A stretch of 64,000 nucleotides of DNA from assembly GCA_019359235.1 (NCBI GenBank), contig JAHHHT010000012.1, forward strand, positions 67,648 to 131,647, read 5' to 3'. A model generated the notes under the pieces. It was not told where the DNA came from, did not search any database, and saw only the letters and a list, made by a program, of their open reading frames with translations. Below, piece after piece: positions 3,747-45,800 of this stretch (its first letter is position 1; every line of letters begins with the position of its first letter). The position numbers were made by a program, and so were the translations under genes. Source of the DNA: Oscillatoria princeps RMCB-10 (GTDB lineage: Bacteria; Cyanobacteriota; Cyanobacteriia; Cyanobacteriales; Oscillatoriaceae).

Positions 3747-6700
3747 TTGGGGAATTTTACAGGATTAAATGTGGCACAGAATTGGCAAAATTTTTGGATA
3801 GCATTCCGTGAATCTTTAGGTTTTTTTGAATTTTTACCTCCAGGTAAAGGAGCGAAACGAATGATTGAGCATCTATCAGAACTGTTTTTAGATTTAGACT
3901 TCTACGCAGCCATAAACCCAGACTTGGCGCAAGCCGGACTGACCGATTCCGAGCATCTGTTAGAGCATTTAAAAACATCCGGACTAGCAGAAGGGCGACG
4001 ATTTTCCCCCTTTGTGGATTTAGACTTCTACGCAGCTGCGAACCCAGACTTAGCCAAAGCCGGTTTGACCGCTCCCGAGCAGTTGCTGGAGCACTTGCAA
4101 ACCATTGGGCTAAAACAAGGGCGGCGGTTTTCGCCTTTTGCTGACCTCAACTTCTACCGGAATAGCAACACCGATCTGGTTGACGCCGGTGTGACAGAAC
4201 CCGAACAGCTGTTAAAGCATTTGCAAACTTCTGGATTAAAGCAAGGGCGGCGCTTTTCACCGGCAGTCGATCTCAACTTCTACGTTGCTAACAACCCTGA
4301 CGCGGTGGCCGACTTCGCCAATGACAGGGAGAAAGTGTTCGATCACTTAGTCAGTGTTGGGGTAGCCGAAGGGCGCAAATTTGTGCGCAATTTAGATTTA
4401 AAGAATTACTTAGCGCTCAACCCAGATGTAGCTGCAGAGGTGGGTGGTTCTTTAGAAAAAGCATTAAACCACCTGCTCATTTCCGGATTGAAGGAACGGC
4501 GGCAGGGAGCACCGGCTCACCTGGCTGCAGAAAGCGTGCAGATTCAAATTGCGCAGCAGCTGTACGAAGCGATAGCCGCTTGGATACCTAACCCCTCAAA
4601 TACCCAACCGATTCTGCAATTGCTCTCACCTGATGTAATTTGGAACATCTCAGGAGATGCAAACCGCCTTCCATTTGCGGGACGGTTTTTGGGTGCGGCG
4701 GGAGTCCAGCAGTGTTTGACAGCCACAAGGCAGACGCTGTTTCAGAAACAGTTTGCGCCGCTGGAATTTATCCAGGATGGCGAGCGCGTCGCCGTGCGAA
4801 TTGCGCAAGTCGGCACAGCAATTGCCACTGGGCAAGATTTCCAGATGGATATTGCAGACCTGCTGGCAGTGCGCAGCGATGGCTTAATTTCTTCACTGAA
4901 CAGGCTATCAAACACCTACACCCTGAATCAGGCTCTGGCTGGCGCAACATCGGCACCGATTCCAGAAGACGATTCACTCACAGGAAAGCCGGCGGTTGCC
5001 GATAGCTCAGCCGATACAGAAGCATCGCGCCAAGTAGCGGTGGGAATGTGGAATGCCCTAATCAACGGCAGCGATCCGGAAAGCTTCAATCCAGCCAATC
5101 CCAAATCCTTTTTTGCCTTGTGTGCTACGGATGCAGTTTGGAGTTTTGCTGTTGGCAGCGATCCGGATTTGCTGCCCTATTCTGGAGCGGCTAAAGGTAC
5201 TGTCAACCCTGACGGCACCTTTGGTACTGTGCTCACAGAACTAATTTTGCCGCTGCAGGACTTAGTGCAAGCAGGCAGACTGACGATCGAAGAATCTTTT
5301 GCTGCAGGCAACCGGGTTGTGGTGCACTTAAAAGAGCTCGACGCCACAGTCAAAAAAACTGGCAACCGCTATGACCTGGACTTGATTAGTTGGATAGTGG
5401 TGGGGGGTGGCAAAGTTCAGTCAGTCCAAACCATCGTCGATACCAACCTTACCGTGCGGGCGCTACGACCGGGGGGCACTTACCCCTTGCCGCCTTTGCC
5501 CAGGCGCAGCCCACCCTACTTCGTGACCACCAGCTTGGCCACTAATCAAATTCTCACTTTCGACCAGCAAGGGAACTTCACCGGCATTTTGGGTGAGGCG
5601 AACCAAACTGACAGCGGTTTGGTCAATCCCAGCGGCATTACCTTCGGACCAGACGGCAACCTTTACGTTAACAGTCGGGGAAGCAATCAAATTCTCAGGT
5701 ACGACGGGATTTCTGGGAAGTTCCTGGGCGTCTTTGGCCAAGCAACCAACCTTGACAGCGGGCTGCTATTTCCCACCGGCATCAAATTCGGGCCAGACGG
5801 CCACCTGTACGCCGTTAGCGGGCGCTCCTCTCAAATTTTAAAGTACGACGGGTCAACTGGGCAGTTCCTCGGCGTGTTTGCGCAGCGGGACAACGGTTAT
5901 CCTGGCAACATCATAGTTGACGACGGCACTGTACCTGCAGACCGCCCGGATTTGACGGTCTTGCAGTTTGGCCCGGACGGCGACCTCTATGTGGGCAGCC
6001 TGTTGCAGGATGCTGACAGCAACCCAGACACTGGTGTTGGTGCCATTCTCAGGTACGCCGGTCCCCTCTCCACCAATCCCGGGGAATTCAAGGGCGTATT
6101 CGGGGAAGCTAATAACCTAGCGCCAACTTCCCTAGTATTCGGGCCCGACAAAAACCTCTACGTCAATGACGAGGGCGGTCAAGTTTTGGCGTTCGCCGGA
6201 CCCAACTCGGACAGTCCGGGCAAATTCAAGGGCGTCGTTGCTGACGTGAAAAAGGATTTTGCCGCTACTGGGGCAAAGTTCGCGGAGTTCATAGTTCTTG
6301 GCATGGAATTCGGGCCGGAGGGCCACCTGTACACGGGTAGCGCTGCCTTCGCCGTGCAAATGGGCGGCAATGTGCTGCCGGCGTTCTGCCAAATCAACAT
6401 CTACGCTCTGGAAAATTCGGACAGTCCCGGCAAGTACCTGGGCGTGTTTGGCGAGGCCAATACCAAAGACAGCGGGCTATTTATTCCCACTACCCCGATA
6501 TTTTCCCAGAATGCCTTTTTGCAACCGTTCTTTCTGGTGGGAACCAATACTGACCCGCAGGGAATCTTGGGCTCAGACGAAACAGATGCGCTGGCGGCTT
6601 ACGACCGAACGGGGAATTTTATTGGTTTCTTCAGTTTATTTCCCGGCAATGACAACCCGCTAAACGGCATCGGCGGCGTGGTTTTGGGAGCAAACGGCAA

Positions 6701-16791: not shown

Positions 16792-17015
16792 TAAAGCCTG
16801 TTTGGCAAGTAAATTTTCTCTCTTTCTCTCTCATTCTCAGCCCGAAGCTGGGAATGAGAATTAACTCTGCGCCTCTGCGCCCTCTGCGGCAAAAAAATAT
16901 TCCTCTTGCTTCTTGGCGTCCTTGGCGTCTTGGCGGTTCATTATTAACTTATACGAACGCCGATGTCGCGTCTCTACCAGACACCAATGCCCCCTGCGGT
17001 AAAAAAAATATTCCC

Positions 17016-30658: not shown

Positions 30659-33325
30659 ATGAAGAGAAGTAAGCAAATGGCTGAGAATCCAACAGAAATT
30701 CCTCTGACTGCGAGTGGGGTAATTCGCCTGAAGCCCCAGCAGTACATTCACGTTCTGGACAACAACACCGGCGTCACGAGGCTGGAGGTTGGCCCGCAAA
30801 CGATTACGCTTCGCGATCACGAGCGCCTGGTATTAAAACCCTCACCGATGATAATTGTGCCGCCCCGGCATTATTGTGCGGTTGCCAATCCGGTTCTCCG
30901 CAATGATGAGGGCACGCCAGTTGCCGATCAGCACGGCCAAATTAAACTGCGGTACGGCGATCGGGAAATTCGCTTAGCGCAAGATCCTTTTCCCCTGTAT
31001 CCGGGCGAAGCGATCGAGCAAGATGTGACGCGCTTGCACGTCGTGGAGACAAATCAAGCGCTGCGTCTGAGAGCGATTCGGGATTTTTCGGATGCAGTGA
31101 CGGTGACGGTTGAGGGAGAAATTGAGACTCAAACTATCAGCCGTACAGCCGGCGATGAGTGGCTGTTTGAAGGACCGGGAACTTATCTGCCCCGGGTGGA
31201 AGTGGAGGTACTGGAAACTGTGGCGGCTACGGTGATTAAGCCGAACCAAGCTTTGCGCTTGCAGGCGCGACAGAATTGCACGGACCGGCTGGGAAATCGC
31301 CGCCGTGCCGGTGAAGAGTGGCTGGTGAGAGAAGAGGGTGCCTATTTGCCCGGGGTTGATGAAGAAGTGATTGCCATTGTTAAGGCTTACGTTCTGACAG
31401 AGCGGAAAGCGCTGCACTTGAGGGCGAAACGCACTTTTACTGATATTTTTGGCCGGCAGCGGAAAGCTGGCGATGAGTGGTTGGTGACAATCTCGGATGC
31501 AGAGATACACATTCCGGATGTGTATGAAGAAGTGGTGGGAGAAGTTGGGATTACGACTCTGGGCGATCGGGAGTGGTGTATTGTGGTCGATCCGATTGGT
31601 GAGGATGGCAAGCCGCAATTAGGAAAGCGAGAGGTTCGCCAGGGAAGAGCGTCTTTTTTCTCGCATCCGGGAGAGTCGCTGGAAGGGGGCATTCAAAAAG
31701 TCTATGTTCTCGGCGAGCGGGAAGCGCTTTTGCTGCGAGCTAAAGAAGCTTTCAGTGAGGGGGAGGGCGAGAGTGCGGTGGAGCGCCAGCCGGGGGATTT
31801 GTGGATGATTTCCGGTCCGCGAGATTATATTCCCCGCGTGGAAGTGGAAGTGGTTGAGCGGCGCAAAGCGATTCCTCTGGATAAGAATGAAGGCATTTAT
31901 GTGCGGGATATTCAGACGGGTGAACTCAGGCTGGTGAGCGGCCCCCAGGCGTATATGCTCAGCCCGTATGAGGAACTTTGGGAGAAAGAGCTTCCGCCGG
32001 TTGTTGAGGAGTTTCTGGCGCAAAAAACCGATCCTGTTTCTGAGCGCAGCCAGAGTCACAGTACAGGGAGTTCCGAGGCAGGTCAAAAATCTGTAGCCTC
32101 GAAACCTGTCGCTAAACGGGATAAAACTAGGGCGGTTGTTTTTCACGTCCCGCAAAATGCAGCGGTGCAAATCCACGACTATAAAAACCGAAGCGCCCGC
32201 ACTGTATTTGGCCCGGATTTGGTGATGCTGGGACCTGATGAAGCATTTACGGTGCTGAGTTTGTCAGGTGGCAAGCCTAAGCGACCGAATGTGATTAAGT
32301 CGCTGGCTATATTGCTGGGCCCTGATTTTATGACGGATATCTTCATCGTGGAAACATCAGATCACGCCCGACTTCAGATGCAGCTGTCGTATAACTGGTA
32401 TTTTGATGTGGATAGAGCGGATGAGCAAGCTGCTGCAAAACTGTTTCAAGTTCCGGATTTTGTGGGGGATGCTTGCAAGGCGATTGCGTCTCGGGTGCGG
32501 GGCGCTGTGGCGGGGGTGCCATTTGACGAATTTCACCGGAATTCTGCCCGGATTATTCGGGAGGCTGTGTTTGGAACGGATGCGGAAGGTCACGTTCGCG
32601 ATGAATTCCGCTTTCGGGCGAATAATTTGGTGATTACGAACATTGACATCCAGTCTGTGGAGCCGGTGGATGAGCGGACTTTGTCCAGTCTGCAAAAGTC
32701 GGTTCAGATTGCGATTCAAATTACGACGGATGCTCAAGAAGCGGCGGCGAAGCGCGATGCGGAGCGGATTGAGCAAGAGGCTAAAGCTCGACTGGAAAGG
32801 CAGATTATTGTCGATCGGGGTGCGGCTGAGGTAGAGCGGAAAAAGCTGCTGGAATTCCAGGCTGAAAATGCGGCGATTCAGTCTACGGGGCAAGCTATTG
32901 CGGAGGCGAGGGCGAAGGCGGAAGCGGCTCGGATTCAAGGGGAATTGGCTGTGAATATGGCGCAGCAAGAAGCGGAGGCGGCTCGGATTCGGGCTGAAGC
33001 TGATTTGGCGCAGCTGAGAGCGCGTCAGGAGGCGGAGTTGGCTCACCAGCAGGCGCTGGTTAATCTGGAGATTGACAAAGCGGATCGCATGGCTGAAATT
33101 ACCAGTGCGGAATTCGCGCAGAAAGTTGCGGCAATTGGGCCGGAAACGCTGAAAGCTATGGCTCAAGCGGGACCGGAAATGCAGGCGCGGCTTCTGCAAA
33201 GTCTTGGCATTCAGAGTGTGCTGATTACTGATGGGAAAAATCCGATTAATCTGTTTGGCGCTGCTAGCGGTTTGATCGGTTCGGTGACGCCGCCGCTGAG
33301 TTCGGAGCCGCAGCGCGGGGGTTGA
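30659..33325 (+). CDS. Major vault protein (MVP) homologue, full length.
   Basis: The 888-aa product is collinear with, and highly similar to, the eukaryotic MVP consensus. The N-terminus reads …YIHVLDNNTGVTRLEVGPQT…VPPRHYCAVANPV…IRLAQDPFPLYPGE. The repeat domains read AGDEWLFEGPGTYLPRVEVEV…AGEEWLV…AGDEWLVT. The shoulder reads IPLDKNEGIYVRDIQTGE…FGPDLVMLGPDEAFTVLSLSGGKPKRP…FVGDACKAIASRVRGAVA. The cap-helix reads …EAAAKRDAERIEQEAKARLERQ…GPEMQARLLQSLGIQSVLITDG. The alternative start is the Met at 30677. Confidence 0.9.
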   Translation: MKRSKQMAENPTEIPLTASGVIRLKPQQYIHVLDNNTGVTRLEVGPQTITLRDHERLVLKPSPMIIVPPRHYCAVANPVLRNDEGTPVADQHGQIKLRYGDREIRLAQDPFPLYPGEAIEQDVTRLHVVETNQALRLRAIRDFSDAVTVTVEGEIETQTISRTAGDEWLFEGPGTYLPRVEVEVLETVAATVIKPNQALRLQARQNCTDRLGNRRRAGEEWLVREEGAYLPGVDEEVIAIVKAYVLTERKALHLRAKRTFTDIFGRQRKAGDEWLVTISDAEIHIPDVYEEVVGEVGITTLGDREWCIVVDPIGEDGKPQLGKREVRQGRASFFSHPGESLEGGIQKVYVLGEREALLLRAKEAFSEGEGESAVERQPGDLWMISGPRDYIPRVEVEVVERRKAIPLDKNEGIYVRDIQTGELRLVSGPQAYMLSPYEELWEKELPPVVEEFLAQKTDPVSERSQSHSTGSSEAGQKSVASKPVAKRDKTRAVVFHVPQNAAVQIHDYKNRSARTVFGPDLVMLGPDEAFTVLSLSGGKPKRPNVIKSLAILLGPDFMTDIFIVETSDHARLQMQLSYNWYFDVDRADEQAAAKLFQVPDFVGDACKAIASRVRGAVAGVPFDEFHRNSARIIREAVFGTDAEGHVRDEFRFRANNLVITNIDIQSVEPVDERTLSSLQKSVQIAIQITTDAQEAAAKRDAERIEQEAKARLERQIIVDRGAAEVERKKLLEFQAENAAIQSTGQAIAEARAKAEAARIQGELAVNMAQQEAEAARIRAEADLAQLRARQEAELAHQQALVNLEIDKADRMAEITSAEFAQKVAAIGPETLKAMAQAGPEMQARLLQSLGIQSVLITDGKNPINLFGAASGLIGSVTPPLSSEPQRGG

Positions 33326-33329
33326 GTTT

Positions 33330-34100
33330 TTGGGTGGGGTGCTCTGTGGCGTTCCCCACCCTACTGGGTGGGGGGGTGGGTTTCCTCGTTCCGGGGCGGG
33401 CACGGTGCCACCGGCACTACTGCCTGGGAACGAGGAAACTTGGGGGTGGGGTTTGAGCCCCCTATTAATTGGCCAACAGCATCTTTCAATCGCCGGGGAG
33501 CTGTAGGGGCGGCCCCCCGTGGCCGCCCTCCTGACACCGATGCACGGGAGCATGCGCCTTATGACATTACCATCCCGCAATTGTGCAATGCCCTTTTGCT
33601 AAGTGTTCCGGAAGGTGCGTTGCCCCAAGAGGGCAACACACCCTACTGTGCTTGGCGTCCCTTCACGGGGGCGGTTTATTATAGCAATCGACAGTCAGTT
33701 GAGGACAGGGCATCTCACTTTCTAGTAGGGACAGGGACAGGCGGGACGCCTGTCCTACGCCTTATATATGAGCGTTTCTCAGATTAGTGTGCTACGGAGA
33801 AACTCGGTAGGGGCGGTCGTGCCGCACCGCTCCTACGAAATCGGGTTTATGGGCCATAGTACATTAAACTGAGAACCGCTATATGTAGGTACGGCGTAAG
33901 CGTTGCGGCGCGTCAGCGCTACTCCCTAGCCTCATGCCCTCAAGGTAAACATGTCCGTGCCCTGGGTGGGTACTGCTATAACCCACCCTACTAGGTTGGG
34001 GAGGTGGGTTACGCTGTGGCGTTCCCCACCCCACTCTATATAGTGCGCTCCGCACGCGCACCTGTTCAGTCCAGAATCAGGCAAAAGTCCCAGCTGCAGC
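33330..34100. repeat. Repeat-rich intergenic block containing several SDR hairpins.
   Basis: The block contains ggtggggtgctctgtggcgttccccaccctac, and ggtgggttacgctgtggcgttccccacccc at ~33985-34030. The motif gggccatagtacattaaactgagaaccgctat at ~33850 also occurs at 1040-1075. Confidence 0.7.
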
Positions 34101-34578
34101 ACAGGACTCGATAAATCGCGCCGGTACAAACCAACCGCGCTAAAACGCGCACGGCTTTGACGCAATAATAAAAAGCGCGTATACATACAGCATTACGCGA
34201 TAAATCGCCTCTTTCCACGAACGAGGGGGATTTATCGCGTCTGTACAAAAGGCTCCCCCGCTGATAATGCAAAAGTGGGATGCTCCCTAATTTACCTCGC
34301 GATCAACAGAGCGCTGCCCTGAATTCGCCACAAGTATGCGGCTATCGGCCCGCTACCGACTCAATAAACAACAAAAACGACATGCGCTTATGGGAATTTG
34401 CTTTGTAATAAAAATCACTTTTTTTCTTAAGTTTTTTTTTATAGGAATTTTCCCGATCTAGGTATAATCTTGGAACTGTGAGCAAATTGACTGACTTAGC
34501 TAACGAATCCCGCATTCACAGCTAAGCCCGAACGCTCGATTTTGCCTGTACTATCGCAGCAAAACTTGCTGAATTACT

Positions 34579-36021
34579 ATGGTTACAATCGCAACAACGA
34601 ACCGGCAGCAACAAAGTATTGACATCCAAGTTGCTCGCAACCTAGCGATCACGACGAATACCGTCCCCCAAATGACGGGGATTACACCCCGGTGGCTGCT
34701 GCACTTCCTGCCGTGGGTGCAAGTGCAATCGGGAACGTACCGCGTCAACCGCACCAAAGTCGTTCTCAAACCAACTCCAAAAGTTAAGGTCAATAACAGC
34801 AACGGCTCCTCGAATGTGGCCCCTGAAGACCTGCGGACAATCCCCATCCTGTCAGACCTCGCTACTTCTGACGCTGCCGCGCTCGCCAATCGCTTTCAAA
34901 GCCAGTCTTTTGGGATGGGAGAAACTATAGTTGCGGAAGGTCAAAAAGACGACAAATTCTATATCGTCGCTCAAGGGAAATTAGAAGTGTTAATGCGGGG
35001 CGAACAAGGCTACCCCTTGCGCCTTGCCGTTCTGGGTGCGGGAGACTACTTCGGCGAAGTCGATCTCTATCAAGATCTGCCCAGCGACGCCACTGTTCGC
35101 ACACTGACTCCCTGCCGGTTGCTGACGCTTTCCAAAACCTGCTTCGACCAAGTGGCGAGTCAATCCCCACAAGTGCTGGAAAACTTGCGGCAGGCGGTTG
35201 AAAATCGCATGCGGTTAAAGACGCTCCTCAACCTGTACGGGGAAGAAAAAGTTGCGCTCGCCGCTGACTACGAAGGCGAAACTGAGTTACCCGCCTCGTT
35301 TGTGGACTACGAAAACGAACCGCAAGAGTACGAACTGAGTATCGTCCAAACTATTTTGCGCGTTCACACCCGCGTCGCCGACATTTACAACGAGCCGATC
35401 GATCAGTTGCGCGAACAGCTTCGCCTGACTGTCGAAGGCATGAAAGAGCAGCAAGAATGGGAAATTATCAACAACCCTGCCTTTGGCTTGCTGAACGCCG
35501 CCGCGCCCTCAATGCGCGTTCAGCCCCGCTACGGTGCGCCGACTCCCGACGATCTCGATGAAATGCTGGCTCGCGTGTGGAAACAACCGGCTTTCTTCCT
35601 GGCTCACCCACGGGCGATTGCAGCTTTCGGACGCGAATGCACGCGCCGGGGCGTTCCGCCGGTAACTGTGAATCTGTTCGGCTCTCCTTTCATAACCTGG
35701 CGCGGTGTGCCAATTGTGCCCTGCGACAAATTGGAAGTGCAAAATCGCACCGGCAACCCCGAAGGTCCAGGCAAAACGAATATCCTGCTCGTGCGTGCCG
35801 GTGAAAAAGAACAAGGCGTTGTCGGCTTGCATCAAATGGGCATTCCCGGCGAACAAATGCCCAGCCTGTCTGTGCGGTTCATGGGCATCAACATCCAGGC
35901 GGTGGCTTCTTATTTGATGACGCTGTACTTCTCCTGCGCTGTCTTAACCGATGACGCTCTAGCCGTGCTGGAAAACGTGGAGGTGGGATACTACCATGAC
36001 TATCAATATGCCAGCGCATAA
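34579..36021 (+). CDS. Family 2B encapsulin shell protein (HK97-fold nanocompartment) with an inserted cNMP-binding domain.
   Basis: The 480-aa product has an internal CRP-like cNMP-binding domain reading …[28 protein letters not shown]…[11 protein letters not shown]…[11 protein letters not shown]. The C-terminal HK97-like region reads [21 protein letters not shown]…NILLVRAG…[14 protein letters not shown]. The stop overlaps the next gene by 26 nt. Confidence 0.8.
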
Positions 36022-37915
36022 CGGTAAAAACGGACATGGGACGGCTCAAGACGTGCCATTACCTCCCACCGGCGACAGTGGGATGTTTGACCCGATCTCT
36101 GTAGAATCGATGGCGAATCAGTTTTATACCGCTGTGCCGAATGCTCTCAGCGTGGCAGCCCCAACCGGCACCCAGCCTGCAATTGACAATATCGGGACTG
36201 TTCCGCAGCCTGAGAGGAATAGTTCTGGCATGAGTGGGGTGGCATTAGTCGGGAACTCCGCACCGGCATCAGCCCTCAGCGAGGAAGCATTAACCGCAAT
36301 GGCTAAACAGTTGCGCTCGCAGATGGTTCCCGCTAATTTGGAAGCTAACCTGTTTCAGGCATTCGCACAGATCAAACCCGCTGCCCCCTCGCAGGAAACG
36401 GCTGCGGCGCTGCCAACAACTTCGGCTTCCAGCAATGCCTTGAATGTGGAAGCTTTGAAAGAGGCGGCACAACAGCTGTACGCCCAGATTCCTCAGATTT
36501 CCCCCAGCGGAATTCCGGGCAATTCGATTGCCACGCCTCCAAAGCCAACTTCTATTTTACCGCTCAGCGAGCCAGATTTGCAAAGGGCTTTCGCGGATGC
36601 GGGAGCGCAAGCCAGCCATTCTCCGGTTCGGGAAACACCTCAGCCGTCGTTCTATTTCCTGTCTCCCCCAGCAGTGGAAAATCTGGGGTTAGAGTCTGGG
36701 GCTGTATTTGATGTCAGCGCCATCCGCAAAGACTTTCCGATTTTGCACCAGAAAATCAACGGCAAACCGCTGATTTGGCTGGATAACGCCGCCACAACTC
36801 AAAAGCCGCAAAGCGTTATCGATGCCCTGTCGCTGTTCTACCAGCGAGACAACTCCAACATTCACCGGGGCGCTCACACTCTGGCGGCGCGGGCGACGGA
36901 TGCTTATGAGGGAGCGCGGGAAAAGGTACAGCGGTTTATCGGTGCGGGTTCGGCGTCGGAAATTATCTTCGCACGGGGAACCACAGAAGCGATTAATCTG
37001 GTGGCGCAAACCTGGGGTCGCAAGTATATCCAGCCCGGAGATGAAATTGTTCTCTCGACGCTGGAACACCACGCCAATATCGTTCCGTGGCAGATGTTGG
37101 CGCAAGAGACGGGGGCAATTTTAAAGGTTATCCCTGTTAGCGATAGCGGCGAAATTATGCTGGAGGAATACGCCGGACTTCTCGGACCGCGCACTCGCAT
37201 TGTTGGGATTACGCAGGTTTCTAACGCTCTCGGAACAATTGTTCCAGTGCGGGAAATGACGCAAATAGCCCACCGGCACGGGGCAGTCGTCCTTGTTGAC
37301 GGGGCGCAGGCTGTTTCTCACATGCCGGTTAATGTTCAAGAGATCGGTTGCGATTTTTACACCTTTTCTGGTCACAAACTCTTTGCGCCAACGGGAATTG
37401 GTGTCCTGTACGGGAAACGGCAAATCCTGGAGGATATGCCTCCTTGGCAGGGTGGCGGCAGCATGATTCGCCATGTCACGTTCGAGAGAACGATTTACAG
37501 CGATCCCCCGGCAAAATTTGAAGCGGGAACGCCTAATATTGCTGATGCGGTTGGACTGGGTGCGGCGATCGACTATATCACCCGCCTGGGGATGAGCAAT
37601 ATCGAACGGTACGAGCACAAACTCACCGAGTATGCAATAGAACGCCTCGCGCAGATTCCGGGGTTGCGTCTAATTGGTACTGCACCTCACAAAGTAAGCG
37701 TGGTGTCGTTTATTTTGGATGACATCCCTGTGGAACAAGTTGGGCAGCGCCTCGCCCGAGAAGGGATTGCGGTGCGTGCAGGTCATCACTGCGCTCAACC
37801 GACGATGCAGCGGTATAATCTGACGGGTACGGTTCGGCCTTCGCTGGCTTTTTACAACACTTGTCACGAAATCGATACGCTAGTAGAAGTCCTGCGGACA
37901 ATTCGCTTCCGCTAG
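35996..37915 (+). CDS. SufS/CsdA-type cysteine desulfurase with a ~215-aa disordered N-terminal extension (the putative encapsulin cargo-loading domain).
   Basis: Residues 1 to ~215 are low-complexity and rich in Ala, Pro, Ser and Gln. They are followed by a class V aminotransferase/SufS core reading …[11 protein letters not shown]…HRGAHTLA…[13 protein letters not shown]…[17 protein letters not shown]…RAGHHCAQP, which supplies the PLP-binding lysine and the active-site Cys loop. Confidence 0.85.
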
Positions 37916-38157
37916 CTGGAATTGTCCGCACAAGGGGACAGCATAAATGTCCCCTCACCCACCCCAACTTTCTCGACCACAAGGGGAGAGGGGGAGCTGC
38001 TGCCTCGGATCTTTTTTAGCACAAATAAAGAGAGCATCAAGAAACCTGGTTTCTAGGAATACCCATGTTAGGCTTAATTGTGCCGGACTACTGTTCGAGT
38101 CCGAGCGGATCTCTGTTTTAGGGGAGGGGCGGGTTTATTAGAACCCTTCTCTATGGT

Positions 38158-38276
38158 GAGCATCCCGATTATGTAGGGGCGAAGCATGAGGGCGAATAAT
38201 CTCTCGGTCAAAACCAGCAATTGATAATCCTCAGGCTTCGCCCTCACCAGGGTAGTTTCAAAAACGGGATGCTCCC
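38158..38276. mobile_element. MITE-like element (copy 2), bounded by GGGAGCATCCC/GGGATGCTCCC.
   Basis: It is ~95% identical to the copy at 7522-7642. Confidence 0.75.
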
Positions 38277-38607
38277 TCTCTGTACCACACATATTTCGGG
38301 GGAACCCGCCCCTACAGATATAGAAAATCGGGAACGAACGGACACGATATTGTCCCGCTTTTCCTCAAGGCAGGGCAAGCTCCAAGGGAGCATTAGTAAG
38401 CAAGGTAACTCAAGTTGCTACCTACAAGTCTAAGCATCTAGATCCCCCCAAACGGGGCGGGCAAGGTGCCACCGGCACTACAAAGGGGGGCTTTGAGAAT
38501 GTCCCCCCCCTTTTGAAGGGGGGCTAGGGGGGGATCTCCACGCTCGTACTGCTAAGTAGCAACTTGGGTTAAGATAAGTGGACTGATTTACTGGAGGTAA
38601 TCGGAAA

Positions 38608-39453
38608 GTGCTGATCGAGAACGCTCAACCCACGACTGAAGTAGCCCAAAACAGCCAGACAGCCAAGTATCCTGACGCCTCCTCACGAGGAGAGAGTTTT
38701 CGCCCAGTCAAAGCTAACCCTATCGGTGTTTTAATCGCTGATTGGCAAACGATTTATCAGCGCGATCCTGCCGCCCGCAACTGGCTGGAGGTGCTGTTGT
38801 GCTACCCTGGATTGCACGCTCTGTGGTGCCATCGCGTAGCGCACTGGCTGCACGGTTTAGGCATTCCTTTTCTGCCTCGTTTCCTGTCTTTCTTAAGTCG
38901 GTTATTCACGGGAATTGAGATTCACCCGGGTGCTAAAATTGGCAAAGGGGTGTTTATCGACCACGGGATGGGAGTGGTGATCGGCGAGACTGCAGTTGTC
39001 GGCGACTATGTGCTGATTTATCAGGGAGCGACCCTGGGGGGGACGGGAAAGGAAAAGGGCAAGCGCCATCCGACACTAGGGAATAATGTCGTTGTGGGAG
39101 CGGGGGCGAAGGTACTGGGCAATATTAAGATTAGCGATAACGTTCGCATCGGTGCGGGTTCGGTTGTGCTGCGGGATGTGCCGAGCAACAGTACGGTGGT
39201 GGGGGTTCCGGGGCGCATCACTCGTCTGAATGGGTTGAGGGCTGATGCTCTGGAGCATAACAACCTGCGGGATGTGGAAGCTGAGGTGATTCGCGCTTTA
39301 TTTGAACGGGTGAAGGAGCTTGAGAAACAGGTTGTGGAGTTGCAAGGTCAATTCAATTTGCCCCCCATGCCGGTGGATAGCGAAAAAACGGAGAGCGAAA
39401 AGTGTTATTCTAATGGGGTGATTGAAGACTTTCTCGATGGGGCTGGAATTTAA
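38608..39453 (+). CDS. cysE: Serine O-acetyltransferase.
   Basis: The product has hexapeptide left-handed beta-helix repeats reading [44 protein letters not shown]…[30 protein letters not shown]. The CysE N-terminal helical domain is present. Confidence 0.8.
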
Positions 39454-39471
39454 GAATTCCAGAGGGTTCAA

Positions 39472-39900
39472 ATGACAGAGTTTAACTGGGTTCGCGGCTT
39501 GCTGGGCGGTTTGCTCATCGGCACGAGTGCGACTGTCCTGCTGGCATTCAACGGTCGGATCGCTGGGATTAGTGGAACGCTCAACAGCGCCCTCAGTTCA
39601 GCGTCTGATGGAGTCTGGCGCTGGCTTTTTCTGGGCGGACTGCTGGCGGGGGGGGCACTCTATGAATATGTCCTCGCACCGGCACCGACACCGGCATCTG
39701 AGTTCGCTCCCTGGGCGATGCTCGCCGGCGGCTTTCTGGTGGGCTTCGGGACGCGCATGGGTAATGGCTGCACCAGCGGACATGGGGTGTGTGGGTTGGG
39801 CAGGCTTTCGCTTCGCTCGCTGGTGGCAGTTCTGACTTTTTTGGGCACTGCAATCGTCACGGTTTTCGTGACGCGCCATGTGCTTTTATGGTCTACCTGA
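39472..39900 (+). CDS. YeeE/YedE-family (Sulf_transp) membrane protein, half A.
   Basis: The product has four TM segments and the conserved motif GTRMGNGCTSGHGVCG. Confidence 0.75.
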   Translation: MTEFNWVRGLLGGLLIGTSATVLLAFNGRIAGISGTLNSALSSASDGVWRWLFLGGLLAGGALYEYVLAPAPTPASEFAPWAMLAGGFLVGFGTRMGNGCTSGHGVCGLGRLSLRSLVAVLTFLGTAIVTVFVTRHVLLWST

Positions 39901-39912
39901 GTGAGGGAAAGA

Positions 39913-40003
39913 AGCGATTTATCGCGGATATACAAGAGGGGGAGACGCGATTCATCGCGTCTCTACAAGAGGGGGTAGACGCGATTTATCGCGTCTCTAC
40001 AAG
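39913..40003. repeat. Three tandem ~30-33-bp units, each containing the palindrome GACGCGAT-TT-ATCGCGTC.
   Basis: The tandem array reads agcgatttatcgcggatatacaagaggggg, then agacgcgattcatcgcgtctctacaagaggggg, then tagacgcgatttatcgcgtctctacaag. Related copies lie at 34108-34130, 34196-34208 and 34225-34252. Confidence 0.8.
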
Positions 40004-40005
40004 AT

Positions 40006-40455
40006 TTGGATTTGGGAAAGAATATGAAACAAAATCTGGTTGCTTTGATTTCAGGTGTGCTGTTTGGTCTGGGTTTGGGTCTTTCCCAGATGATTGACCG
40101 AGAGCGGGTTATCGGTTTTTTGGATGTCACCGGCGTTTGGGACCGGACGCTGCTGTTCGTACTGGGCGGGGCTGTTGGGGTGACGGTGATTGCGTTCCGT
40201 TTTGTGTTGCGCCTCCCGCACCCATTATATGCGGAAAAGTTCTACGTTCCCACTCAGAAAAATATCGACAGAAAGCTGATATTGGGGGCGGTTATTTTCG
40301 GTGTCGGTTGGGGAATTGCTGGATACTGCCCCGGACCGGGCCTCACGGGGCTGGTGCTGGGCATCTGGAATCCCGTGTTGTTTGTAATCGCGATGATTGC
40401 CGGTTCGCTGACTTACAAATGGTTTTCGACTCGGTTTGAGGGGGAAATGGAATAA
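40006..40455 (+). CDS. YeeE/YedE-family membrane protein, half B.
   Basis: The product has four TM segments and the motif GVGWGIAGYCPGPG. Confidence 0.75.
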   Translation: MDLGKNMKQNLVALISGVLFGLGLGLSQMIDRERVIGFLDVTGVWDRTLLFVLGGAVGVTVIAFRFVLRLPHPLYAEKFYVPTQKNIDRKLILGAVIFGVGWGIAGYCPGPGLTGLVLGIWNPVLFVIAMIAGSLTYKWFSTRFEGEME

Positions 40456-40600
40456 AAGAATTAGAGTTGTGGGGTGCGTTACCGCTCGGAACGGCACCCT
40501 ACTGATTCTCGTTACCAGCCGGAGCCTGGGAACGAGGAAAGGGAGAGGAAAGAGGGAAAGGGAAAAAATCGATATGTAGCGTTTTTTAAGGAAAAGGTAT

Positions 40601-42754
40601 ATGAACGATGTCGTTCTGAACCTGACTATTTATCCCTGTGATATTGCCATAATTGGAGGCGGCTTTAGCGGCTGTCTGGTTGCAGCAAATCTTTTGCGGG
40701 ATGCAACCGTGCCGGTGGTGATTAAGTTGATTGAACGGAGTCCGGAAGTAGGCAGAGGAGTGGCTTACGGGACGCAAATATCCTGTCATTTGCTTAACGT
40801 GCCGGCGGGGAAGATGAGTGCGTTTGCGGATGAACCGGCTCACTTCCTGAACTGGTTGCAAAGGAACGGGTATGCTGACAGTACAGCATCCTCTTTCATC
40901 CCGCGTCAGGTTTATGGGGATTATGTGCGGGCACTGTTGAAGGAAGCGGAAACAAATGCTCGGGCTGGTGTGCGGTTGCAGCGGATTGTGGGGGAAGCGG
41001 TTGCGCTGGAAACGACAGCAACCGGCATCAGGGTGTACCTGAAAGACGGTGAGTGTTTGTGCGTTCAAAAGGCTGTGCTAGCGCTGGGAAATTTCCCGGC
41101 ATCTCTGCCCGAACCGCTTGCCGGTCTGGAGAACTTCGACCGCTATCTGAGAGATGGCTGGGAAGCTGATGCGGTTGCCGGTCTGAATCCAGACGATTCT
41201 ATTCTGGTGGTGGGCACCGGCTTGACGATGGTCGATGCGGTTGCTACTTTGCACCAAAAAGGATTTCAGGGGAAAATATATGCCGTCTCGCGTCACGGTT
41301 TGATGCCTGCCGGTCACAAACTAACAAGTCATTATCCAGCATTTATTGAGGCAGATACTGCACCAATAAATGCGCGAGAATTACTTCATTTAGTGCGTCT
41401 AGAAGTGCGAGCGGCGGTGGCGCAGGGGCACGACTGGCGTGCGGTAATCGACGCACTCCGCCCAGTCACGAAACAACTTTGGCAAGCACTTCCATTGCAG
41501 GAACAAAAGCGATTTTTGCGCCACGTCAAGGCTTACTGGGAAGTGTGCCGGCATCGCATTGCTGAAGAAATGGCAAATCTGCTGGATGCGACAGTGCAGT
41601 CGGGTCAACTGAAGCATTATGCCGGTCGGATTCAAAGCTGTCGGGAGTTGGAGAATCGGGTGGCTGTGACGATTCGGGAACGGGGGAAGCAAACGGAGAA
41701 AGTGTTCTTGGTCAGCCGGATTCTGAACTGCACCGGCTCAAACTGTAACTATCGCAAGTTGCAGCACCCCTTGCTCGCCAGCTTGCAAGAACAAAAGCTG
41801 ATCCGCTTCAACGAGCTGTCAATCGGAATCGACACGGCTCCAAACGGTGCTCTAATCGATGCAAACGGAAAGGTATCGGAATTGCTGTACACTTTGGGAA
41901 CACCCCGCAAGGGCAATCTTTGGGAAACTATAGCCGTTCCCGAAATTCGGGTTCAGGCTGCTTCTCTGGCGCAGGAACTGCTAAAATCCCTCAATCCCAA
42001 AGCCGATACTCCTGTTGCGGGGGATTGGTGTGCTGGAAATCTATCGCTCGCGTTACAGAAATCTACTATGCTATTGCGTCAACTGTTCGATAAAGAATCG
42101 AGTACCTACACTTATCTGATTGCCGATTTCTCTACCAAAGCAGCCATCCTAGTCGATTCTGTATTGGAACAAGTGGAACGGGATCTCCAGCTGTTGCGAG
42201 AGTTGGATCTCACCCTGCGCTATTGCCTGGAAACCCACATCCATGCCGACCACATCACCGGCACAGACAAGCTGAGGACACTTACGGGCTGTCTGGCTAT
42301 TTTGCCGGAAAATACTGAGGTGACTTGTGCGGATGGCTATATGGCGGATGGGAAGATTTTGCAACTGGGAAGCTTACAGATCCGCGCCATTGCCACCCCC
42401 GGTCATACTGACAGCCATAATGCTTATCTTATCGATGGCATTTACCTGTTAACCGGAGATGTGCTGCTGATCCGGGGTTGCGGTCGTACTGACTTTCAGA
42501 ATGGCAATGCCGGTTTGCTGTATGATGCTGTAACGCAGAAGTTATTCACGTTACCGGATGACACTTTGGTGTATCCCTGTCACGATTATAAGGGGCAAAC
42601 AGTGTCTACTATTGGGGAAGAAAAGTGCTGGAATTCCCGGTTGGCGGGGCGCAATCGCAGCCAGTTCATCGAGCTAATGAATAATCTCAATCTGCCCTAT
42701 CCCAAAAAGATGCTGGAATCTGTATCCGCCAATCAGCGCTGCGGTCAAATTTAA
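40601..42754 (+). CDS. Fusion protein with an N-terminal FAD/NAD(P)-binding (NAD_binding_9-like) domain and a C-terminal ETHE1-type persulfide dioxygenase (metallo-beta-lactamase fold).
   Basis: The N-terminus has a Rossmann GGGFSG dinucleotide motif. The C-terminus has HIHADH (HxHxDH) and TPGHTDSH metal ligands and the PDO-specific GRTDFQ motif. It is 717 aa. Confidence 0.75.
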   Translation: MNDVVLNLTIYPCDIAIIGGGFSGCLVAANLLRDATVPVVIKLIERSPEVGRGVAYGTQISCHLLNVPAGKMSAFADEPAHFLNWLQRNGYADSTASSFIPRQVYGDYVRALLKEAETNARAGVRLQRIVGEAVALETTATGIRVYLKDGECLCVQKAVLALGNFPASLPEPLAGLENFDRYLRDGWEADAVAGLNPDDSILVVGTGLTMVDAVATLHQKGFQGKIYAVSRHGLMPAGHKLTSHYPAFIEADTAPINARELLHLVRLEVRAAVAQGHDWRAVIDALRPVTKQLWQALPLQEQKRFLRHVKAYWEVCRHRIAEEMANLLDATVQSGQLKHYAGRIQSCRELENRVAVTIRERGKQTEKVFLVSRILNCTGSNCNYRKLQHPLLASLQEQKLIRFNELSIGIDTAPNGALIDANGKVSELLYTLGTPRKGNLWETIAVPEIRVQAASLAQELLKSLNPKADTPVAGDWCAGNLSLALQKSTMLLRQLFDKESSTYTYLIADFSTKAAILVDSVLEQVERDLQLLRELDLTLRYCLETHIHADHITGTDKLRTLTGCLAILPENTEVTCADGYMADGKILQLGSLQIRAIATPGHTDSHNAYLIDGIYLLTGDVLLIRGCGRTDFQNGNAGLLYDAVTQKLFTLPDDTLVYPCHDYKGQTVSTIGEEKCWNSRLAGRNRSQFIELMNNLNLPYPKKMLESVSANQRCGQI

Positions 42755-42769
42755 GCTGAGTAGCTGAGT

Positions 42770-42855
42770 GGGGTGGGTTACGCTGTCGCCAACCCACCCT
42801 ACTTTTCTTTGGGGGGGTGGGTTACGCTGTCGCTAACCCACCCTACTTTTCTTTA
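42770..42855. repeat. Direct duplication of a ~39-bp SDR hairpin between convergent genes.
   Basis: The unit ggtgggttacgctgtcgc(c/t)aacccaccctacttttcttt occurs twice. Confidence 0.85.
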
Positions 42856-45800
42856 GACAAAATCAAGTTGAGGACGTTCAGCTCACTGGAAGTGAGGAGG
42901 TATTTGTCGGTAAAGATTTTTTCCCTCATTTCTTCTAGGCTGTAGCTCCTGAAGATAAGAAAGGGGAATTCCCCGTACTTGCGACCGATGGGCAGGGTGT
43001 TGTATGCTGGGTAAAGGGAGTGGACATACTTGGACATAAGCGTGCGAAATTCGGTGTCTTCTTCCTCTTCTGGATTGGTTTTGAAATAGTCCCGCATCGC
43101 CTCACCGGCAATAAAGGCAAACAGTGGCAAAGCATAATACTGATCGTCTCTCTGGCTGCTCTGCTCAAACCACTGAGTTCGGCTGACTTCGCCGCTGAGC
43201 AATTTCACCAGCTCCATCGCGCCACCCCTGATGGCGGTGCGCAGGTTTTCCGGGTACTCCTGGCGGTGGCTAATCGCCCGCATTTTGGCGATCAGTTCGG
43301 GGGTGGCGTGCTTTCTGATCTGCTGTTCCAGTCGAATTTGGTAAGTTTCTTCCAGGGTTTTCTCACCCACCGGCACCACCAGCAAGCTGCCACTAATGTG
43401 CCCCGCTTCTATGTTACCATAATCTAGCAATTTGTCAAGGCTTCGGCACATCTGGGAAAACTGCCGGTTGAACAGCTCCCGCAAGGAAAGATAGGAAAGC
43501 TTTTCAGAAACCCGGTTTCTTGGAGAAACCGGGTTTCTCGATGTGGCTGGATTGAGCAAGGTGAATTCGGCGCGGCTCAGAATTTCCTGCAAACTGGTAT
43601 AAACCTGCTGGAGCACCAGGTAGCTGGGACGACGGCGGTGTTCGTTCTTCAGTTCTCGGATTAGATTAGTCATCTGACCGGTAAAGGTATCACCGGCTGC
43701 TGACACAGACTTCCCGCCGATAGGAATCATCATAAACTCTTTCCTCCCCAGACGCCAAGCCCCCACAATCCGCGTCATCACGGAAACCTTGAGAATCAGC
43801 AAGATATTTAACAAACTTAAGACGCTCTCCTGGATGGAAAGCTGGCGCTCTTTGGCGTAGTCCTCAAAGGAAGTATCGCGCTCTTTGGGGTAATATAGCG
43901 CTCTATCGTACAAGTAAAAAATCAGCTCCTTGTCTTCGCCGTCGAGAGTCTTGCTTTCCCCATTTTCCCGATATTCCCCACGCGCTCTGTAGATAACCTG
44001 GATGACTTCCATCAGGTTTCTCTCCACCTGGAAGCGGGGAATTTCCGCCAGGATGCGCTTCGCCTTGGGAAAAGACAGCCCCCGACTCGCGGAAGATGTC
44101 ATAAAGACTACCTTGACATGATTCTTGTGCTGGTGTATGTTTTTCTTAGCCTCCTCGGAGAGATTGGCGTGGATTTCCAGGTAGTCCTGATTTTCCGTAA
44201 ACTCTCCCCACTGCTTCCGAAGTTTCTCAATTAGCTCCTGCAATCTCTTTTTGTCCTGGATGTACACCAGCAGCTGACTGGCGTCTGGATTTTCCAAGTA
44301 GGCGCTGATGTCCTCGGCTATCTTTGACTGTACGGCTTTCACCAAGCTGTTCCCTTTGTCTGAAACCGCCTCCTCGCTGTATTTCAAGCACTCGACAAAC
44401 ACCTTATAGGTGATTGACAAACTGCGAGCGGGATAGGAGTTGGCGTTGATGGCGATAGCACCGGCTCTCTTAAACGGAAACCGCGACACAGAAAGAGGCG
44501 CTGCGGTTTGTTTCGCCATCCGGAAATAGATTTTGTCCGGTTCCGGTGAGGCTTCCGAGAGGTGCTGGGTGATAACTTCTGGCTCAACAATAGAGGCGTC
44601 GGCGACAATGACTTTGGTGTTGAAGCCGTGCTGCGCTAGCTGAAAGCGGTGCAAAAATTGGCTGATTCCTTTCAGGAAGTTGACGCCGCTATCGTCGCCG
44701 GTGATTTCGTCTACCATGATAAAGACGTGCTTTATCCTTTGCGAGATTTTGCGCATCTCGGAGCCAATGACTTTCCCCTCGCGCTTATTGTAAGCACGTT
44801 TGAAGATTTTGTCAAGGTGATCTAGGGTGTTGGCTCCATTGGGGGTGATCCGCAAAGACTGGATGGAGACTGTGGCGACAATATTATTGTATTTCCTGCT
44901 GTCGATGAGGGCGTGGATTCCTTCGCAGATGCTAGCTAGTACGCCGGCGGTTCGCTCGCCAATATCTCGAAATGTGTCTTCGGTTTCCCTCTGGAGGCGC
45001 TTCTGGCGCGTGTTCGTAGTAGGGGCTTTAGCCCCTCCCGTAGCGTTGAGGAAGTGGACGGACTTGGCGGTAAAATCATCCTGGCGCTGATTAGAATGAT
45101 ACTCGACTGTGGGTTTTCCGCCGTTTTCTTTGATGATGCTGGCGTTGGTGTTGATGCAAAACAGCCGGCTGTCGGACAGTTTGTCGGTGTCTGGGGATTT
45201 GAATTTCTCGATGATGTCTAGGTTAACTTGTTTGCGGGGACTGACGTAGAAGAACAAAAACCCCTCGTCGATGTGAGCTTGCAGAAAGTTGGCGATGGCT
45301 GTGGTTTTGCCAATTCCGGGATTGCCGGTTAAAAATATATAGGTATCGTCCGAAACCAGCGCCTTTCTGATAAGTTCGGCGTGAGCGTCTCTCAGGTGGG
45401 ATTTGGGACTGATGTCTAGCTGCGCTGCTAACTCAGCCGGTATAATATCTATAGAGTTGAGAAAGCCATCCATCCGCTCGGTGTGAAGGACTTCTGCAAT
45501 TCCGTCCTCTCTGAGGCTGAGAGGTTTTTCTGACAGCGACTCGACGAACTTCTTCCCCTCATTAAAACTCCGAGTGGCATTTTGCTGGATAATCCCTAAA
45601 ACCTGCCGGCGAGCGGTGTTGATTTCCTGTTTATCACGTTGATTTTTGTAAATCTGCGCACAAGTTGCCAGTACGTTTAAGTTTTCCGGGCGCAGGGACA
45701 TGGCGCTGATGCCCCGGTCACTGTACCCAACTGCATTAAACACCACCGGCGCACTTTCTGTCAAGATGCCGGTTTGTCGCAGAAATCCATAGAAGCTGTG

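Follow-up and report, generated by a model that had tools for sequence, protein, structure and literature searches.

The DNA analyzed here (the window) is a stretch of 64,000 nucleotides from the cyanobacterium Oscillatoria princeps RMCB-10, and the subject of this analysis is a short palindromic repeat that occurs at two intergenic sites of its encapsulin gene cluster. According to Pfam, the family 2B encapsulin gene (34579-36021) encodes cNMP_binding and SrpI-like domains, and two separate genes encode the halves of YeeE, the Sulf_transp half at 39472-39900 and the DUF6691 half at 40024-40455. One group of palindromes lies upstream of the encapsulin gene and the other fills most of the 123-nt gap between the yeeE halves. 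There are six copies in all (A to F), two of them intact and four decayed:

34104-34129, minus strand: copy A, degenerate, GGACTCGATAAATCGCGCCGGTACAA, foot GTAC; identical in Kamptonema formosum
34193-34216, plus strand: copy B, degenerate, inverted relative to copies A and C
34225-34251, minus strand: copy C, left arm deleted, GGGGG-ATTTATCGCGTCT-GTAC-AAAAG
39903-40004, minus strand: head-to-tail array of three units (copies D to F), with the minus-strand spacer CCCC(C)TCTT
39910-39933, minus strand: copy D, first array unit, degenerate, 3 mismatches, foot decayed to GTAT
39943-39966, minus strand: copy E, second array unit, GTAG-AGACGCGAT-GA-ATCGCGTCT, perfect stem and GTAG foot
39977-40000, minus strand: copy F, third array unit, GTAG-AGACGCGAT-AA-ATCGCGTCT

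The initial annotation had described the array as a tandem triple palindrome with 8-bp arms. The three units are present, but only two are perfect (GACGCGATTCATCGCGTC at 39944-39961 and GACGCGATTTATCGCGTC at 39978-39995); the first has 3 mismatches (39911-39928). The true arm length in the second and third units is 10 bp (GAGACGCGAT/ATCGCGTCTC), with centres TC or TT. In copy F this corresponds to a perfect 9-bp stem (10 bp including the flank), a 2-nt centre and a GTAG foot. The conserved TCTCTAC found 3' of the palindrome represents a CTAC foot; on the minus strand it reads GTAG, and there the two intact units are GTAGAGACGCGATGAATCGCGTCT (from 39966) and GTAGAGACGCGATAAATCGCGTCT (from 40000). 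Tandem Repeats Finder resolves the array into 3.1 copies at a period of 33-34 nt, with 85-86% matches. Copy D begins ~10 nt past the stop codon of the Sulf_transp half (39898-39900).

Degenerate copies had also been noted in the encapsulin upstream region, and three are indeed present between 34104 and 34251, 330-470 nt ahead of the encapsulin start codon. Two have degenerate cores (34105-34122 and 34194-34211), and in the third (34229-34246) the left arm is gone. Copies B and C form a REPIN-like inverted doublet (REPIN being a hairpin made of two repetitive extragenic palindromes, see below), with 15-nt arms that are 93% complementary and 16 nt apart. In the window an 18-nt palindrome pattern gave 5 matches against 0.19 expected, and none of 100 shuffles attained 5; the pattern is real and chance is excluded. 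A half-site scan of the window revealed no further convincing copy beyond the two sites, in agreement with the initial annotation, and returned only a doubtful relic at 16965. The latter lies in a repeat-rich intergenic stretch (16945-16985), and its sequence, GAACGCCGATGTCGCGTCTCTACC, has 2 mismatches to the right half of the palindrome.

Distribution of the palindrome and associated transposase genes

We scanned metagenome contigs with a pattern that covers only the right half and the tail of the palindrome (GATTNATCGCGTCTNTACAA), and obtained at least 120 matches. Nearly all of those listed also bear the left arm that the pattern did not require, giving GTAGAGACGCGATTAATCGCGTCTCTAC, a sequence with 86 exact copies in the loci that we retrieved (designated L with a number). 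The widespread form is a 28-nt palindrome, GTAG-AGACGCGAT-TA-ATCGCGTCT-CTAC, and a minority of copies have the centres TC or TT as in the window. A second scan, of one genome per species with the pattern AGACGCGATTNATCGCGTCT, again gave at least 120 matches, and the named ones are mainly Nostocales (many Nostoc, Calothrix, Tolypothrix, Scytonema and Fischerella). The matches listed further include other cyanobacteria (Elainellales, Oculatellaceae, Thermoleptolyngbya, Phormidium and Plectonema), non-cyanobacterial isolates (Larkinella, Flavobacterium, Formosimonas and Prevotella) and metagenome-assembled genomes (MAGs) of Bacteroidales, Methylobacter (Methylococcales), Omnitrophota, Cloacimonadota, Planctomycetales and several lineages of the Candidate Phyla Radiation (CPR). 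Within the loci of the genome scan (L126-L245), the near-unchanged 28-nt palindrome was also seen in Abditibacteriia and in a betaproteobacterium. When we compared a 32-mer with 72,556 plasmids by BLAST, 18 records matched, 17 of them cyanobacterial, including Nostoc punctiforme PCC 73102, Nostoc PCC 7120 and Trichormus (Anabaena) variabilis ATCC 29413.

In total, the 20-nt core with its tail is present in more than 240 retrieved loci of other organisms. By a crude test of overlap with open reading frames (ORFs), 197 of the 274 core matches in these loci are intergenic. The neighbours are unrelated genes from many phyla (for instance, ABC transporters, kinases, CHAT/TPR proteins and dehydrogenases), and among the matches listed several contigs per Nostoc, Scytonematopsis or Omnitrophota genome bear copies. 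Tandem arrays with a 39-nt period occur in the Nostoc loci L191, L137 and L116, in parallel with the 33/34-nt array of the window. The palindrome had been called locus-specific, a description that fails given the abundance of the same sequence in unrelated contexts in many genomes and its being one of at least five families of GTAG hairpins in the window itself. Hundreds of unrelated and mostly intergenic sites, which the initial annotation had held to be incompatible with an operator, are found in other genomes, the counts there being taken from the matches listed.

Beyond the exact sequence, a superfamily is apparent in the 1.78 Mb of retrieved DNA. It has a constant frame, GTAG(A/G)G(A/G)CG...CG(C/T)C(C/T)CTAC, and inner parts that vary yet stay self-complementary (for instance, GTGTGCACAC, TTTCATGAAA, CAAGGCCTTG and AATAATTATT), so the hairpin and the foot are what is conserved and selected. 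In many Nostoc genomes the hairpin stands at the centre of a conserved repeat of ~80 nt, AAAGAATGCGACAAATAGACCATTT-[hairpin]-CCAAGGATGTGTTGCAATCATTAAT, which we observed in L131, L135, L212, L232, L233, L234, L156 and L163 (L163:3860-3950 and 5430-5500). This repeat has imperfectly inverted ends and resembles a miniature inverted-repeat transposable element, or a REPIN, built round the palindrome. A 1.6-kb unit of L163 bounded by inverted repeats was considered as an insertion sequence and rejected, as it consists of two ordinary genes between copies of the ~80-nt repeat.

Repetitive extragenic palindromic (REP) sequences with a GTAG foot are associated with Y1 transposases of the HUH (histidine-hydrophobic-histidine) class, the REP-associated tyrosine transposases (RAYTs), and such genes accompany the palindrome. 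All ORFs lying up to 3 kb from the palindromes were grouped by clustering. The largest multi-locus cluster, beside the generic ABC-transporter superfamily, is an IS200-like Y1 transposase (Pfam PF01797) found at 12 loci. The NCBIfam model for REP-associated tyrosine transposases, NF047646, was the best match for all five Y1 proteins tested; one scored above the curated cut-off and the other four had E = 1e-13 to 1e-16. At 9 of the 12 loci, the Y1 gene contains the palindrome, or a close variant of it, in its reading frame. Loci with an in-gene palindrome include L021, L028, L041, L044, L050 (2792-3358, minus strand), L102, L122 and L176. The in-gene palindrome is translated as CRDAINRVST or VETRLIASLQ depending on the frame, and the L176 variant as DAMNRVST. 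In a tenth locus, L198 from a Bacteroidales MAG, the ORF holds two copies of a sister palindrome, GTAGAGACGGTGTGCACACCGTCTCTAC, read as CRDGVHTVST; at least seven further copies of it occur within 5 kb. Such in-gene palindromes were thus seen in 10 of ~240 sampled loci. Each falls in a variable linker that separates the HuH motif, MPNH(I/V)H, from the WQ and YIxNNP motifs.

On the Nostoc contig L176, a copy of AAGACGCGATGAATCGCGTCTCTACAAGGGG stands on either side of the RAYT gene and one more lies inside it, and the core and the CTACAAG-GGG tail of the flanking copies are identical to those of the window units. Classical RAYTs resembling subclass 2.2 also occur near palindromes in L163 and L184, where they may be coincidental neighbours. 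REP families are usually called species- or genus-specific, and by comparison the breadth of this palindrome across phyla is unusual. This breadth fits horizontal spread together with a RAYT gene that carries the palindrome. Bertels and Rainey (2011) describe the Nostoc punctiforme RAYT npun_f5543 as flanked by a different REP, gttgggtttcgttcctcaacccaac, and thus that study does not cover the palindrome family.

Turnover, identity and rival explanations

The closest named relative, Kamptonema formosum, has a 91% identical encapsulin, a 94% identical YeeE half and the same gene order, including a gene for a vault protein. Upstream of the encapsulin gene it carries the same three worn copies as the window. 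The same region contains five to six copies, two of them perfect, in L251 (96% identical encapsulin), and zero copies in L246 (92%), L247 (83%, same gene order), L249 (77%, Floridanema) and L256. Between the yeeE halves, the three copies of the window correspond to one in Kamptonema formosum, whose loop is enlarged and whose foot has decayed (AGACGCGAT-aaaataa-ATCGCGCTTTTACAAGATT), and in L246 and L256 only to a remnant that has lost its self-complementarity (AGACGGGTGTGATTAAGTCT). Copy number thus varies among close relatives at both sites. The element is old at both sites in this clade, was amplified in some lineages and decayed in others, and its dyad is not conserved; this is the behavior of a REP and not of an operator. 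A recent insertion, as suggested by the absence from the 92% relative, is countered by the copies shared with Kamptonema formosum and by the remnants in L246 and L256. We also observed that orthologous copies in the window (34229-34242, ATTTAT) and L251 (1443-1462, ATAAAT) have identical arms and a flipped centre. Such a difference would be produced if an entire perfect palindrome were inverted, and it could thus result from flipping of a hairpin or cruciform or from re-insertion in the opposite orientation.

The alignment with the 96%, 92% and 83% relatives reveals a different conserved block at ~34420-34470 of the window: TTTTTCTTAAG, a run of T, then GGTATAAT. It can also be given as TTTTTTCTTAAG-TTTTTTTTT...GGTATAAT and stands 110-160 nt before the encapsulin start codon; the upstream region outside it cannot be aligned in these relatives. 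On sequence grounds, this TTTCTTAAG/T-run/TATAAT block makes a stronger candidate for the promoter, and for any operator, of the operon than the palindrome does.

We conclude with high confidence that the motif consists of six copies of a GTAG-tagged REP of the type that belongs to RAYT subclass 2.4 (Bertels group 4). This identification is based on the family sequence, the mainly intergenic spread, the tandem arrays, the link to RAYT genes elsewhere and the local turnover of copy number. REPs are short stem-loop palindromes of 20-40 bp, and what defines them is a short GC-rich hairpin that carries GTAG at its foot (Di Nocera et al. 2013, BMC Genomics 14:522; Quentin et al. 2018, BMC Genomics 19:475). 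In the window, the arms are 9-10 bp long around a 2-nt centre, two copies are perfect, and the GT[AG]G foot is found in the second and third array units and has decayed to GTAC or GTAT in other copies. The REP type is already known, and the case of subclass 2.4 has been published in outline (Quentin et al. 2018). The fallback of the initial annotation, another family of small dispersed repeats (SDRs) that happened to land twice here, was essentially correct in so far as it named a dispersed repeat family.

As outlined by Quentin et al. (2018), RAYTs of subclass 2.4 have the motifs HuH (NH[IFV]H), WQ and YIxNNP; their REPs are 'long' and 'double foot', carry GT[AG]G 5' and its complement C[TC]AC 3', are inserted in frame in the transposase gene (tnpA_REP), and occur in Cyanobacteria, Bacteroidetes and various other phyla. 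The palindrome family shares with them a GTAG foot at the base of a 9-13-bp GC-rich stem, a 2-4-nt tip, an extragenic location, tandem or inverted groupings, palindromes in frame in and flanking Y1 genes, and the same range of taxa; sequence identity with the published examples is suggested by this matching description and not by a comparison of sequences. In contrast to those examples, the window copies have a single foot, four of the six are decayed, and no cognate RAYT gene lies within the 64 kb. Judged by sequence, the window copies are single-foot variants of the double-foot sequence family.

Other known repeats resemble the palindrome to various degrees. The cyanobacterial families GTAG-12, -15 and -16 of Di Nocera et al. 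(2013) are likewise GTAG-tagged stem-loops (6-13-bp stems, 2-3-nt loops) that occur as singletons, as head-to-head, tail-to-tail or head-to-tail dimers and as clusters, mostly between genes and in some cases inside them. They were reported from Anabaena variabilis, PCC 7120 and Nostoc punctiforme, the same strains in which the plasmid BLAST found the palindrome. Head-to-tail arrays are rare in those families and present in the window, and here too the likeness is one of description only. The SDRs of Nostocaceae (Elhai et al. 2008, Genome Res 18:1484) are 21-27 nt long, partly palindromic and mobile-looking, and they often stand beside heptamer repeats; the retrieved Nostoc copies of the palindrome are themselves embedded in heptamer repeats (for instance, AGTCAAG and AGGAGTTA). 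However, later papers report no SDR-like repeats outside Nostocaceae, and the palindrome reaches far beyond that family, again as compared by description. The REPs of Escherichia coli, with the bacterial interspersed mosaic elements that they form and the transposase TnpA_REP (YafM), share the GTAG guide and hairpin, the intergenic and clustered occurrence and the single-copy relative of Y1 transposases. They differ in that they have another stem sequence and longer, bulged stems, belong with subclass 2.2 and are genus-specific, whereas the palindrome is near-identical across phyla. A search of a collection of papers for the literal palindrome sequence returned no match.

The E. coli system suggests how such copies may arise. 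TnpA_REP, a Y1/HUH enzyme, recognizes a single-stranded hairpin with its GTAG guide, cuts and rejoins it (summarized in Quentin et al. 2018). By analogy, the REP described here would fold as a hairpin in single-stranded DNA, a Y1/HUH transposase would recognize the hairpin and its GTAG foot and then cut and rejoin the strand, and this would spread or amplify copies in intergenic DNA. At the present locus the copies would be passengers and not operators for a protein. The only likely local effect would be at the RNA level, where three hairpins in the intercistronic mRNA between the yeeE halves may alter mRNA decay or the translation of the flanking half-transporter genes.

Several observations weigh against this identification. 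The double foot is not seen in the window, where one side carries CTAC and the opposite side GGGG(G/T), and the centres are TT or TC in place of the canonical TA. A tblastn search of the window with the RAYT proteins gave only the trivial match to the palindrome itself and no RAYT gene. The count for the source genome covers these 64 kb, in which 6 copies stand at 2 intergenic sites. In all four relatives examined, the gap between the yeeE halves still holds the element in one form or another, leaving room for a local role. Finally, to our knowledge, transposition by a subclass 2.4 RAYT has never been demonstrated experimentally.

The initial annotation had proposed an operator, that is, a duplex dyad bound by a dimeric and possibly sulfur-responsive factor that would govern the encapsulin operon as well as an internal promoter before the second yeeE half. 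The dyad is perfect with its 10-bp arms, the three array copies are 33-34 bp apart (about three helical turns), and within the 64 kb the copies are confined to two intergenic sites that belong to a single functional gene cluster. Nevertheless, the identical sequence is found at unrelated sites in many phyla and not in one regulon, as well as inside and around RAYT genes. The upstream copies are far from the start codon, decayed and in one case armless, and orthologous promoters do not keep them, as L246, L247, L249 and L256 lack them; it is the TTTCTTAAG/T-run/TATAAT block, nearer to the gene, that is kept in the 96%, 92% and 83% relatives. Between the yeeE halves the copy number goes from 3 to 1 and then to a non-palindromic relic among relatives. 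Promoter consensus scans found no promoter-like site at the array, nor at the upstream site. With this wide spread, the link to RAYT genes and the absence and turnover in relatives, we regard an operator as very improbable. Still less credible is a chance or purely local origin, in which slippage generated a repeat unrelated to anything elsewhere. The tandem units show that local duplication certainly made part of the array, but the core and tail recur in the retrieved loci of other organisms and no shuffled sequence attained the observed count, and we consider this explanation almost certainly wrong.

Another explanation is that the array derives from a REP but has been kept as an RNA element whose hairpins set the relative expression of the half-transporter genes. 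They could do so by shielding the upstream mRNA from 3' exonucleases, or by attenuating translation or termination near the stop codon. REPs of E. coli stabilize upstream mRNA and can lower translation when near a stop codon. The predicted RNA fold of the array is strong (-44.1 kcal/mol, z = -4.4), the array begins just past the stop codon, and an element occupies the same position in the window and Kamptonema, with remnants in L246 and L256. However, the remnant in the latter two is no longer self-complementary and the hairpin is therefore not under conservation, copy number and loop size vary freely between close relatives, and an Rfam search of 33000-43500 at E <= 10 gave no relevant match at either site. 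Terminator consensus scans found none at the array and two weak minus-strand sites upstream, not above shuffled expectation. We consider such an exapted element unlikely. A fuller version holds that the array, amplified from one hairpin in Kamptonema to three in the window, was co-opted as an RNA-level device setting the ratio of the yeeE halves, and that the palindrome owes its near-identity across distant phyla to being carried within the coding frame of its own RAYT, which would make it a self-carried, horizontally transferred REP; this too is a tentative proposal to which we give little credence.

Other hairpins, neighbouring genes and implications

The palindrome is not the only GTAG-tagged hairpin in the window. 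A simple search for GT[AG]G standing before stems of 7 bp or more gave 21 sites, which belong to at least five families:

GTAGGGGCGGGCCCCCGTGCCCGCCCC
GTAGGGTGCGTT...AACGCACC
GTAGGGTGGGTT...AACCCACCC
GTAGGACAGGCG...CGCCTGTCC
the palindrome family under study

Among all 256 possible tetranucleotide tags before hairpins, GTAG is the second commonest (18 against a mean of 3.5). In the controls, the reversed sequence had 7 and mononucleotide shuffles 1-6. Two groups stand out near the locus:

33364-34035: cluster of other GTAG hairpins from four families, at 33364, 33503, 33646, 33725/33758 and 33991
42768-42854: tandem pair of 44-nt units from another GTAG REP family, GTAGGGTGGGTT...AACCCACCC, situated downstream of a gene with FAD/NAD-binding and metallo-beta-lactamase domains

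The first cluster lies directly upstream of copies A to C, and the whole stretch upstream of the encapsulin gene (33364-34251) is a REP cluster with five families. We also considered HIP1 (GCGATCGC) as the identity of the palindrome and rejected it, as the palindrome is not the octamer. Its centre, GCGAT-NN-ATCGC, looks like a split HIP1, but HIP1 spreads via substitution and not as an inserted hairpin, unlike the REP-type palindrome. HIP1 itself is weakly enriched in the window (4 occurrences against ~1 expected; 2 of 100 shuffles attain 4).

Some neighbouring features deserve mention. Directly upstream of the encapsulin operon, 30659-33325 encodes a bacterial protein of 888 aa that is homologous to the eukaryotic major vault protein, with Vault repeats and an MVP shoulder domain (E = 7e-71), and the same order of vault and encapsulin genes is found in Kamptonema formosum and L247. 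Downstream of the yeeE halves, 40601-42754 encodes the 717-aa protein with FAD/NAD-binding and metallo-beta-lactamase domains. This gene is absent from Kamptonema formosum, where a GTAG REP and then a convergent helicase gene come directly after the DUF6691 gene (L254:10919-10962). It is thus a difference in gene content bordered by REPs, the two tandem units at 42768-42854 being those on the window side. A 44-nt inverted repeat at 38406-38571 (77% complementary, arms 78 nt apart), between a cysteine desulfurase gene and a serine-acetyltransferase-like gene, is unrelated to the REP family.

For annotation, these results mean that a perfect dyad near a sulfur and encapsulin operon should not be recorded as the binding site of a regulator. 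The search for the control region of the family 2B encapsulin operon would better be directed to the conserved block that lies ~110-160 nt before the start codon. Among Kamptonema-like cyanobacteria, the REP copies can serve as markers of rapid turnover in intergenic DNA. A point of broader interest is the near-unchanged occurrence of one 28-nt REP from Nostoc to Bacteroidota and CPR bacteria, and its position in frame in its own transposase-like gene.

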